Assembly: GCA_963542825.1 (NCBI GenBank)
Contig: CAUTZD010000004.1
Location: 406-64,405, forward strand
Reading direction: 5' to 3'
Source: an uncultured Acholeplasmataceae bacterium
GTDB taxonomy: Bacteria; Bacillota_I; Bacilli_A; ML615J-28; CAG-698
Length of the DNA stretch: 64,000 bases
Part shown: positions 38,600-42,776 of the stretch, piece by piece
Layout of the letters: every line of letters begins with the position of its first letter
How positions within the stretch are numbered: position 1 is the first letter of the stretch
The notes under the pieces: generated by a model
The model's input: the letters and a program-made list of their open reading frames with translations, nothing else
What the model was told of the DNA's origin: nothing
Database searches by the model: none
Program-made: the position numbers and the translations under genes

Positions 38600-39811
38600 T
38601 CAGTCTTTTAAACAGCCAATTGGAACAACAAAAACTTCATCATCTCTTTGGTATCCATAGTTAGTGCTCGTAATAAGCATTTTAAATTCTGAAAGTTTAG
38701 GATAGCCATTTTTCAAATCTTTCGTTATTTTTTCATGAAGTTTATTTAACTTTTCTGCTTCTTCTTCAATACCGTTTGGACCAAGAGTCGAACTGACAAT
38801 TGCTGCTTTACCACTATCAAGTGTTAAAACAAAACTAATTTGTTCATCATTTTCTAAGTAAAAGATTTTGCCACCATAAATATTAGCATATACTTTTAAA
38901 TCCCGTAAAACAAGCGATTTAAAAATCGTTTCGTAGTCACTAAGGTTTAGCCGTAAATAATCAGGAGTTTTGTGAAAAATTGCAGTAACAAGTGAAGGAT
39001 CAACAAACATATATTTCTTTGTAGCTTTATTGTCCTTTTTACCCCACAAAGGAATCTCTTCAACAATATATAAATCTTCTAAAACTTTAATGTACTTATT
39101 GAGAAGGTCATTATTGAGTTTACCTTTCGAAAACGTAAAGCGCTCATAATCATAGCTTTCCAAAACTTTCTTCATAATTTCATGATCAACTACTTGATTC
39201 TCTTTAATAAGTTTAGGAGACGGAATATTTTTTAGGTAAGTTTCTACATAACGTATTTGCTTCGTCTTATCATTCTCGGCTAAACTTTCTGGCCACCCGC
39301 CACGACATGTAGCAAAAACAAGATCATCTAAACTAAGAGACGCTTCGCATCTTTTTTCTAAGCGATCAATGCCAGTGAAAAGTTCAATTAACGAAACACT
39401 TCCATTACTTTCAGCTGATTCATATAAACTCAAAGGATACATTTTAATCTCATAAAGCCAAGGTTTTTCTAGTTCTTCTTTACATGAACTTGTAACGATG
39501 TACTGACGTTTTAACTCTCTATTTTCTAAACTACTCCCAATAATTTCCCAAAGCTTTGATTTTTCTTGGCACTCGGCAATAAGTCTTGGTTTCGCTCCTT
39601 TTAATAAGAAATGTGGATTAAGTTCTTCGGTAATTCGGTTCTTTTCATCATCATCACTATATTTTAAAAGAATACTACTTTTCGCTTTTTCTAAAGCAAC
39701 GATTGTTTTGCCGCTGCCCTTAACTCCTGTCAGTAAAACAGCACCATAGGTGTACGTCTTAATATCTAAGAGCTCGTCGATAATTCTTTGATAGTAAATA
39801 TTTTCTTCCAT
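38600..39811 (-). CDS. Divergent AAA ATPase (DUF4143-like)
   Basis: Walker A LLTGVKGSGKT. Length and C-terminal region resemble the other DUF4143 ATPases. Confidence 0.55.
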   Translation of the reverse strand: MEENIYYQRIIDELLDIKTYTYGAVLLTGVKGSGKTIVALEKAKSSILLKYSDDDEKNRITEELNPHFLLKGAKPRLIAECQEKSKLWEIIGSSLENRELKRQYIVTSSCKEELEKPWLYEIKMYPLSLYESAESNGSVSLIELFTGIDRLEKRCEASLSLDDLVFATCRGGWPESLAENDKTKQIRYVETYLKNIPSPKLIKENQVVDHEIMKKVLESYDYERFTFSKGKLNNDLLNKYIKVLEDLYIVEEIPLWGKKDNKATKKYMFVDPSLVTAIFHKTPDYLRLNLSDYETIFKSLVLRDLKVYANIYGGKIFYLENDEQISFVLTLDSGKAAIVSSTLGPNGIEEEAEKLNKLHEKITKDLKNGYPKLSEFKMLITSTNYGYQRDDEVFVVPIGCLKD

Positions 39812-40075
39812 TTTTCCCCTCTACAGTTTAATTATATATAGTAATCGAGAAAAAGTCAACATGAAACGGTTTCATTAAGTGCAATATATTACTATAAAAT
39901 AAATATAAAAATGCCGACCTCCAGTCATTAGATTTATTAGTCTAACTTTTGAAGATCGGTAAATCGAACAATCAGCTAAGGATATCTCTACAATGCAAGT
40001 ATATGAAAATATTTTTTAGTTTGAAGATAATTTTCTAAAAACTTATCTACATTGACAAGCTTAAAAATGAATATG

Positions 40076-40816
40076 CTATTTAATGAATTTCTTTTGCCTC
40101 ATTTCATCGTAGACTTGATTAACAGCTTCAATGTAACAAATGAATGACGGATGGTCATAGTCATTTTTTACAAGATACATATTCTTTTTATTTAAATATA
40201 CTTCTCTTACTTTGGTCCACAAATTATTATCTTTTAACCATTCAACTTTTTCTATTAACCCTTGAGAATTTCTGCCTTTATTCCAAATCCATTCATCAGT
40301 TTGTATTATTCCTGTTTTCTTATGGATTAATCTCTGCCATCCATTTTCATCCTCAGTTACAATACAAAGATCAATACTAAATAACGTTTTGTTGTTGGTT
40401 TTAAACCTTATCTGTTCAGTTGTTAAAGCCGATTTTGAATCTTGGCAATCCGCCAATCCTTTACGCTTTAGAACCTTATTGAATGATTTTCTAACATATT
40501 CTTTGATATTTTTACAATCATTAATATTAAACTTAATAGAATCTATAATACAAAGGTTATAATCTAAATCAATTGGTTTATTTGCATTTTGTGTAACTAA
40601 ATTCCTTGCTCCGCTTCCAACTAAGTGTGCTTCAACTTCTAGTAATCCTTCATTATTAATCATTTGGACTAATTGATTGATAATTCCAGAACATAAATTA
40701 TTCATTCTTTTTAAAAAATCTTTGTCTTCTACAAAGTGATACATAATATTATTTCCTTTCTTGTCCCAACTCGACCATTCAACAACATTATTCACTAAAA
40801 ACGACAAAAAATCCAT
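40076..40816 (-). CDS. Polymerase-beta-superfamily (minimal) nucleotidyltransferase-fold protein, 246 aa, function unknown
   Basis: hG[GS]-x14-DhD signature (LVGSGARNLVTQNANKPIDLDYNL) plus a downstream acidic strand SIDLCIVTED. Own RBS 27 bp after the upstream nuclease gene. Confidence 0.45.
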   Translation of the reverse strand: MDFLSFLVNNVVEWSSWDKKGNNIMYHFVEDKDFLKRMNNLCSGIINQLVQMINNEGLLEVEAHLVGSGARNLVTQNANKPIDLDYNLCIIDSIKFNINDCKNIKEYVRKSFNKVLKRKGLADCQDSKSALTTEQIRFKTNNKTLFSIDLCIVTEDENGWQRLIHKKTGIIQTDEWIWNKGRNSQGLIEKVEWLKDNNLWTKVREVYLNKKNMYLVKNDYDHPSFICYIEAVNQVYDEMRQKKFIK

Positions 40817-40843
40817 ATTTATTATTGATGACGAATTATTTTA

Positions 40844-41527
40844 TTAAATTGATATTTTTTTAAATTCTTTTCCTAAACATTTTGCAAAACTATATTTTTT
40901 ATTATATTCTTCTATGGTAAGAAAACGTTCATTAGGTATTGATAAAAATGATTTTGATTTTAAACCCAATATGCTTTTTACTTCTTCTTTAGACTTTGTT
41001 ACACAAATAATATCAAATCCGTAATCATTTATTAACTGACTAAAACTAATGCTTTGAGTGCTTCTAACCCCTCCATCACCTGACAAAAATTTAGTAACTT
41101 TTTTCTCTAAAAACTTTCCTAGTTTTGGGTTTTGTCCATATACTAAAAATAATAGGTTACTAGCGTTTTTCCAAATGGCTAAACATAAAAATACTTTATC
41201 GCTTTGAAAACATTTTGTTTTTTCTATAGTAGTATCATTAAAAGTCGCACCCCAAGTTGAAGCAGAAAAACTTGCAGATTTAACTTCTAAAAACACATCA
41301 ACTTCTTTGTCTAACTTGCAGTCAAAACCATGCTTTTCAACATTAACCAAATTATACCCTAAATAATATCCTGCCATTGAATCTCTTAATTCATTAATGA
41401 AAGTGTCAGTATCGCCTTTTCCCCATTTTTCTTGAATAATTGCTACTTCTTCTAATATTTCATGACCTTCAATTAAAAATTCTCCATTTATTGGTTTGTA
41501 TGTTCCTTTTTCTAACAAGCTACTCAT
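40844..41527 (-). CDS. PD-(D/E)xK nuclease-fold protein, candidate Type II restriction endonuclease (227 aa)
   Basis: GFDCKL...VDVFLEVKS gives a canonical D...(E)xK arrangement. Its start overlaps the stop of the methyltransferase gene by 8 bp. Confidence 0.45.
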   Translation of the reverse strand: MSSLLEKGTYKPINGEFLIEGHEILEEVAIIQEKWGKGDTDTFINELRDSMAGYYLGYNLVNVEKHGFDCKLDKEVDVFLEVKSASFSASTWGATFNDTTIEKTKCFQSDKVFLCLAIWKNASNLLFLVYGQNPKLGKFLEKKVTKFLSGDGGVRSTQSISFSQLINDYGFDIICVTKSKEEVKSILGLKSKSFLSIPNERFLTIEEYNKKYSFAKCLGKEFKKISI

Positions 41528-42776
41528 AAATTCTATCCTTTACTATGTAATCAACATCTTTTTTAATATGTTTTAAATAAGTATCTATTCTTACTAACAT
41601 CACATCACTAACTTTCGGAAGTGAGTATCCTAAGCCACTCATTATTTTAAATGAATCGGTTTCTTTATTAATTAATTCATCCAATTGAATAAGGATATAT
41701 TTGTGTTTTCTTTTATCTTCATAATTTATTTCATATACAGCTTGTGCAGTTGTACCACTGCCTGCGTAAAAATCTAAAATAATAGCATCGTTGTGCTGAG
41801 AGCATCTAATTAAAAATTTAATTAACTCAACCGGCTTTGGAGTATCAAATAATCCATCTAAACCTAATTTTTTAAGATTATTAGTCCCTTGACGAGAATA
41901 AAAATCTAAAATTGAGGAAACGTTATTAGTTGCTTCTTCTAAATATTCAATAGCATATGGCCTTCCATTTTTGAAAACTAATCTATTTTGGTTATACAAT
42001 GATAATATTTTTTCTTTGCTCGACCATCCTCTAGTTTTTAGTGGTTCCAAATGTAATCCGATTTCATCAATATCTAGTCTGCTTGGTTTTCCAGGAGTTG
42101 ATAAATCTTTAGAAAAGTAAATTCTTCCATCATTAGAGATATTAGAATAATTCCTTATCCATGTTTGTCCTGTTTCGATAATGTATTTTTCTATCATTTT
42201 TTTTAACTCTTTTTCTGCTAATTTAAAATCAGAAGAATATATTGATTGTATTTTTTTAATGATTACTTTAATTTTTGAATTTTCAAAAGGATCGTTTAAA
42301 CGATTAATAAAAAATTTTGGCAACTTCTTTTTGTTTTTGGCAAATGCAACCACGTATTCATGTATTATGTTAATATGTTTTGCATTACTTCTTTGTGCTT
42401 GTTTGGTAATAAATATTCCCACATAGTTTTCTTTTCCAAAAATTTTATAGCACGTATGCAGTAATGAGGATAATTCATTGTCATCAATACTCATAAAAAT
42501 AATACCTTCGTCGCTCAAACACTTTCTCGCAATCTCTAGTCTCACAAAAATATCTTTTACCCACTCCTCGTTGTCATCATTGTATGAAAATATATTTTTT
42601 GTATTGTATGGAGGATCAATATAAATAAAGTTGATGTTGCCAAAAAATCTTGAAAATTCATAATGACACATGGTTTGATAATTATCGCCTATGTAAATAA
42701 TATTTTTTTCTAAAATCATCGTCCAAAACCTACACCTATTGGGCTTTAAAAATTGAGAAAAAAGTGGTATAATCAT
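41520..42776 (-). CDS. Beta-class DNA methyltransferase (N6-adenine or N4-cytosine)
   Basis: Motif IV IYIDPPYN lies N-terminal to motif I DFYAGSGTT. The functional start is probably the second Met (MILEKN..., 42719), behind AGGTG. Confidence 0.8.
   Translation of the reverse strand: MIIPLFSQFLKPNRCRFWTMILEKNIIYIGDNYQTMCHYEFSRFFGNINFIYIDPPYNTKNIFSYNDDNEEWVKDIFVRLEIARKCLSDEGIIFMSIDDNELSSLLHTCYKIFGKENYVGIFITKQAQRSNAKHINIIHEYVVAFAKNKKKLPKFFINRLNDPFENSKIKVIIKKIQSIYSSDFKLAEKELKKMIEKYIIETGQTWIRNYSNISNDGRIYFSKDLSTPGKPSRLDIDEIGLHLEPLKTRGWSSKEKILSLYNQNRLVFKNGRPYAIEYLEEATNNVSSILDFYSRQGTNNLKKLGLDGLFDTPKPVELIKFLIRCSQHNDAIILDFYAGSGTTAQAVYEINYEDKRKHKYILIQLDELINKETDSFKIMSGLGYSLPKVSDVMLVRIDTYLKHIKKDVDYIVKDRIYE

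Follow-up and report, generated by a model that had tools for sequence, protein, structure and literature searches.

Organization of the locus

The DNA analysed here (the window) is a stretch of 64,000 nucleotides on contig CAUTZD010000004.1 of an uncultured Acholeplasmataceae bacterium. Its minus strand carries three co-directional open reading frames of 418, 227 and 246 aa, predicted to encode a DNA methyltransferase, a restriction endonuclease and a nucleotidyltransferase (Table 1), all of them present where a first-pass annotation of the sequence had placed them. The annotation regarded the three genes as a possible module on a mobile island. The segment is AT-rich, with a GC content of 27.7-28.3% compared to 35% in the flanks, and its neighbours are a serine recombinase gene, a fragmented KilA-N gene and two tRNA-Arg genes. 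This composition and setting make the label of an island plausible, but a repeat search found no convincing att-type direct repeats bounding it.

The AAA_14 ATPase gene beyond the nucleotidyltransferase has its own near-consensus promoter (TTGACT-17-TATAAT). A terminator-like hairpin precedes it, and RNA folding of the region 39895-40000 gives -22 kcal/mol (z = -2.1). This hairpin is probably the end of the methyltransferase-endonuclease-nucleotidyltransferase transcript, an assignment weakened by the hairpin's absence from the results of a scan for consensus terminators.

Table 1. Features at the locus, in window coordinates.
Feature	Position	Strand	Basis
DNA methyltransferase gene, beta-class, Mod-like, DPPY motif (418-aa ORF)	41520..42776	-	Pfam, PADLOC, motif order
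Restriction endonuclease gene, 227 aa, PD-ExK, PvuII-like fold	40844..41527	-	Fold assignment, invariant residues
Junction between R-M operon and nucleotidyltransferase cassette	40801..40843	-	Homology limits; promoter position of other family members
Degenerate leader copy (hairpin 40777..40800, G-rich tract 40765..40776, Shine-Dalgarno GGA 40754..40756)	40745..40800	-	Covariance model R1
Nucleotidyltransferase gene, 222 aa from M25 (longest ORF, 246 aa, 40076..40816)	40076..40744	-	Homolog starts, ribosome-binding site
Terminator-like hairpin (39914..39959) followed by a U-rich run	39895..39959	-	RNA fold
AAA_14/DUF4143 ATPase gene, PDC-S01-like (promoter 39831..39859)	38600..39859	-	Context, outside the unit

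A probable Type II restriction-modification pair

The methyltransferase has the catalytic (D/S)PP(Y/F) and AdoMet-binding FxGxG motifs required of a Type II modification enzyme. IYIDPPYN (residues 51-58, with DPPY at 54-57) precedes FYAGSGTT (residues 336-343), which is the order of the beta class proposed in the annotation, and the protein matches the Pfam family N6_N4_Mtase (E = 7e-36). The best PADLOC model is of Type II (MTase_II PDLC03278, E = 4.5e-103), and PADLOC Type III methyltransferase models also match. The enzyme is predicted to methylate adenine at N6 because of its DPPY motif. Homologs align from residue ~20-25 and one member of the cluster has 399 aa; the true start is likely M20 (ATG at 42719), giving a protein of the same length.

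The second gene overlaps the end of the methyltransferase gene by 8 bp (ATGAGTAG), as had been noted before. Its product contains the PD-(D/E)xK core ascribed to it, with FDCKL at residues 68-72 and FLEVK at 79-83, and D69, E81 and K83 are invariant among 40 homologs. It would thus supply the second enzyme of a Type II system, an endonuclease distinct from the methyltransferase that has both the fold and the catalytic residues of a nuclease. Direct sequence searches with this protein against Pfam, NCBIfam, PADLOC and PDB returned no match at the thresholds used, and a profile of its family found nothing among PDB sequences. Homologs of the two genes are adjacent in 23 of 28 R-M loci, the other five being cut short or unresolved. 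Both gene orders occur among the paired loci, and the gap between the genes lies between -5 and +81 nt in 22 of them and is 174 nt in the remaining one (L106). Conserved adjacency, the invariant residues and the family and fold assignments support the reading of these genes as a Type II R-M pair, a conserved two-gene unit that is an ordinary new member of its kind.

Two described systems are closest to the pair. The endonuclease shares the PvuII-like fold with the Type IIP system PvuII, but at 227 aa it is longer than the PvuII enzyme (157 aa), has 15% identity to it and does not match it at the level of sequence. M.PvuII is an N4-cytosine methyltransferase, whereas the methyltransferase here has DPPY and resembles Type III Mod proteins. 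As a further difference from PvuII, no controller (C) protein gene was seen at the R-M locus. The closest solved relative of the methyltransferase is the Type III enzyme EcoP15I Mod (E = 2e-40 over residues 68-378), which has 644 aa as against 399-418 aa here. A Type III system also requires a Res helicase-nuclease gene; the neighbours of the methyltransferase gene are the small PD-ExK gene and the serine recombinase gene, with no helicase.

An uncharacterised family of minimal nucleotidyltransferases

The third protein carries the nucleotidyltransferase signature recognised in the annotation. In the numbering of the 246-aa frame, G67-S68 is followed after 14 residues by D83-L84-D85 and further on by D149, all invariant in 44 homologs. 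In a set of homologs at 22-44% identity the glycine remains invariant and the three aspartates nearly so; the serine is not conserved. These residues correspond to the G-S...[DE]x[DE]...[DE] core of the pol-beta superfamily that is required of a CD-NTase. Nearly all of the ~120 homologs listed have ~215 aa and start at MYH, which corresponds to M25 of the longest frame, and an AAAGGA ribosome-binding site precedes the ATG at 40744, with none before the ATG at 40816. The protein therefore has 222 aa and its gene is separated from the endonuclease gene by 99 nt; the length of 246 aa and the gap of 27 bp given before were longest-ORF artefacts. The apparent similarity in residues 5-24 reflects a conserved non-coding leader, described below.

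At E <= 0.01 the nucleotidyltransferase has no match in Pfam, NCBIfam or PADLOC, the SMODS and CBASS cyclase models included. The PADLOC check recommended in the annotation placed the methyltransferase but not this enzyme. A direct sequence search against PDB gave no match at the thresholds used, and the family profile gave only a spurious match to KaiA. In PHROGs, this frame and the endonuclease matched nothing but families without a known function, and those weakly (best E = 0.0047). A Foldseek comparison with the viral structures of BFVD was uninformative, and searches of the literature for stand-alone or orphan CD-NTase-like enzymes turned up nothing on this family in particular. The protein belongs to an uncharacterised family of the pol-beta superfamily with a putative minimal cGAS/DncV-like (CD-NTase) fold. 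Its model resembles CD-NTases, a group made up of CdnB, CdnE, CdnG, CdnC/D and DncV of CBASS and the animal cGAS/cGLRs. Of the SMODS/CD-NTase-like enzyme suggested in the annotation, the superfamily and this resemblance are supported; no SMODS profile match and no effector operon was found. The family also differs from CD-NTases in its size (~220 aa vs. ~290-370 aa), in its conserved structured leader and in having no adjacent effector, Cap2/Cap3 or other conserved partner. AbiEii/MenT and MNT-HEPN are likewise nucleotidyltransferase-fold proteins of defence islands and mobile elements, but the enzyme here is without an antitoxin or HEPN partner, an HMM match or a top structural match to them, and AbiEi was found beside only 2 of 116 neighbours scanned.

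The family comprises ~900 clusters at 50% identity, for which Pfam, NCBIfam and PADLOC have no model. Its homologs number ~1,400. Matches were found in 18 of 2.9 million viral contigs, in 2 of 50,697 phage records (unannotated, uncultured) and in none of 72,556 plasmids. The neighbours are heterogeneous and include SpoVAD, large serine recombinases, guaA, AAA_14, GNAT, terminase, portal and ParB-like proteins, methyltransferases, relaxase and IS transposases. No conserved neighbour and no Cap effector gene was found in a pattern-based sample, capped at 80 genome loci, in the 18 viral loci or in the loci of distant relatives. In the other genomes sampled the gene stands by itself, carried in gut Firmicutes and Mollicutes by prophages, by integrative or mobilisable elements and by variable islands. 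The AAA_14/DUF4143 ATPase was considered as a partner and rejected, being adjacent in ~5 of the 80 loci and also present in the relative L109 (see below), which has no nucleotidyltransferase at this site.

A conserved promoter and leader RNA

The other copies of the gene that were sampled have their own consensus sigma-A promoter (TTGACA-17-TATAAT). It is followed by a leader in which a 5'-proximal 7-bp hairpin, a G-rich tract (AUGGRYGGYWUGGG) and the Shine-Dalgarno sequence succeed one another. Promoter and leader are conserved across loci, and homology between loci spans from about -60 to -100 to the stop codon. In the hairpin 93% of cells are paired, compared to 77% in shuffles, and registers slid along the alignment give 26-44%. 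Double-change cells number 105 vs. 27 in shuffles, a value reached in none of 500 shuffles, and the covariation was reproduced on independent sequences. A covariance model of the leader gives a single match at each locus, which in every case precedes the gene; 25 of these loci were outside the training set, and conservation of the leader extends to ~36% protein identity.

Compact riboswitches such as preQ1-I and the GGA leader sites of the CsrA type may be comparable; they are of similar size, and like them the leader combines a hairpin with a conserved single-stranded tract just before the Shine-Dalgarno sequence and is tied to one gene family. It differs from described cis-regulatory leaders in that Rfam 15 has no matching family, with E <= 1 as the cut-off for the window copy and E <= 5 for those of 10 loci. 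Three further ideas about the cassette were rejected. An N-terminal extension or upstream ORF does not agree with the indels, which shift the frame from one locus to the next, or with the conserved start at MYH. Flanking repeats as a means of cassette mobility are absent, homology stopping at the stop codon and ~60-100 nt before the ATG. Pairing of the G-rich tract with the loop of the hairpin as a pseudoknot was judged unlikely by eye, as the loops in the alignments are neither conserved nor C-rich.

The copy in the window is degenerate. Covariance model R1 matches it at 40742-40800 with 18.9 bits (E = 0.035), the best match in the window, and aligns over model positions 9-64 without the promoter positions. 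Homology to two other family loci, L111 and L112, starts at 40799. Their promoters are intact, and the window has unrelated sequence at the promoter position; L111, the closest relative of the nucleotidyltransferase (89% aa identity), offers only 80 nt of upstream sequence. No terminator was predicted between the endonuclease and nucleotidyltransferase genes. Since the cassette promoter is lost and no terminator is predicted, the three genes may be co-transcribed in the window genome.

Two probably separate units side by side

The R-M locus of the relative L109 has 95-97% nucleotide identity to the window. Its resolvase, methyltransferase, endonuclease and AAA_14 genes are colinear with the window. 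Where the window has the 960-bp nucleotidyltransferase segment, L109 has 5.7 kb of other genes, and homology between the two stops at window position 40839. No homolog of the methyltransferase or the endonuclease lies within 10 kb of the nucleotidyltransferase in any of the 80 genome loci, 55 of which have at least 2.5 kb of upstream sequence. Conversely, no homolog of the nucleotidyltransferase occurs in any of the 28 R-M loci, of which 13 extend 900 nt or more downstream. The nucleotidyltransferase also occurs without the pair in the 18 viral loci and in several distant-relative loci. Such occurrence without the pair is what the annotation had named as an outcome that would refute its reading. 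The trio is therefore not conserved as a unit in these loci, and the claim of one module is not supported; the trio is probably a chance juxtaposition in a variable island, an R-M pair beside a separate single-gene cassette.

An independent Type II R-M operon followed by a self-contained nucleotidyltransferase cassette that is here read through is probably the correct explanation of the whole locus. The methyltransferase would methylate adenine in a specific site, and the translationally coupled endonuclease would cut the same site when it is unmethylated. The cassette, encoding a putative metal-dependent nucleotidyltransferase of ~220 aa with an intact G-S / DxD / D active site, would have landed directly behind the R-M operon in the window genome. 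Its promoter appears to have been lost at a breakpoint that coincides with the beginning of the hairpin in the leader, so that expression by read-through from the R-M operon is probable. The endonuclease would not be an effector of the nucleotidyltransferase. The latter may transfer nucleotides from NTPs, either to form a small product (nucleotide or oligonucleotide) or to tag RNA 3' ends, it may act in conflicts between mobile elements and their hosts as a defence or counter-defence factor, and its leader may control its translation or stability.

What the cassette might do

A possible role, though a rather unlikely one, is single-gene anti-phage defence of the abortive-infection kind, in which the infection-activated enzyme would make a toxic or signalling nucleotide or nucleotidylate tRNA or other RNA like MenT/AbiEii. 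The family resides in variable islands with R-M genes, PDC-S01/PDC-S22 candidates, AbiEi, matches to PARIS, MADS and PycTM, and tRNA genes; the predicted CD-NTase-like fold, the intact active site and a rare fusion to a PIN7 domain point in the same direction. However, no PADLOC model matches, there is no effector or antitoxin partner, and a toxin made from a consensus promoter that looks constitutive would be hazardous if the leader did not repress it. The target of a signalling nucleotide would be encoded elsewhere.

Equally tentative is a counter-defence or establishment factor of the mobile element, which would be expressed early from prophages or conjugative elements and by nucleotidyl transfer neutralise a pathway of host immunity or protect the element on entry. 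Viral contigs place the gene with DNA methyltransferases and ParB-like nucleases beside the terminase/portal module, distant members lie near relaxase, SSB, HU, XRE repressors and a giant helicase/MutS_I polyvalent-type protein, and the gene often adjoins the element recombinase at the island edge. The low number of matches among viral contigs and phage records argues against this role, as do the many copies in chromosomal contexts without recognisable element genes and the finding of no likeness to known anti-defence proteins.

More doubtful still is a reading in which mobile elements of Firmicutes and Mollicutes carry in this cassette a single-gene conflict module not described before, combining a mini cGAS/DncV-like enzyme that has no linked effector with its leader RNA as an integral partner. 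The leader would then be a new compact riboswitch, an autoregulatory site or even the RNA substrate of the enzyme.

It is very unlikely that the three genes form one functional module, with a signal from the nucleotidyltransferase activating the PD-ExK nuclease in a minimal CBASS-like system or with the nucleotidyltransferase as an R-M accessory. Co-directionality, the missing promoter, which makes co-transcription likely here, and the CD-NTase-like fold of the model speak for it, and a lineage-specific functional coupling may exist in the window genome. Against it stand the gene neighbourhoods, which largely refute it by the lack of co-occurrence in 80, 28 and 18 loci, the near-identical relative without a nucleotidyltransferase at this site, and the usual state of the gene as an autonomous promoter-leader-gene cassette. 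The nuclease proposed as effector has the PvuII fold, is paired with a conserved cognate methyltransferase and lacks a sensor domain, and none of the 28 R-M loci supports the accessory role. Least probable is the hitch-hiking aminoglycoside or lincosamide nucleotidyltransferase (ANT/Lnu) envisaged in the annotation, which would fit the superfamily signature (hG[GS]...DxD...D) and a size of ~220 aa, but the enzyme matches no curated resistance model of NCBIfam, nor Pfam or PADLOC, at E <= 0.01, has no ANT/Lnu protein among its top structural matches, is absent from the plasmid collection and is surrounded by phage and mobile-element genes rather than resistance genes.

Significance

As a one-off juxtaposition, the trio first described matters little. 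Of more use is a by-product of its analysis, a widespread unannotated family of putative minimal cGAS-like nucleotidyltransferases. Should the enzyme prove to act in defence or counter-defence, it would represent a CD-NTase-type protein that has no effector encoded in cis, and its leader would be a new small regulatory RNA motif.

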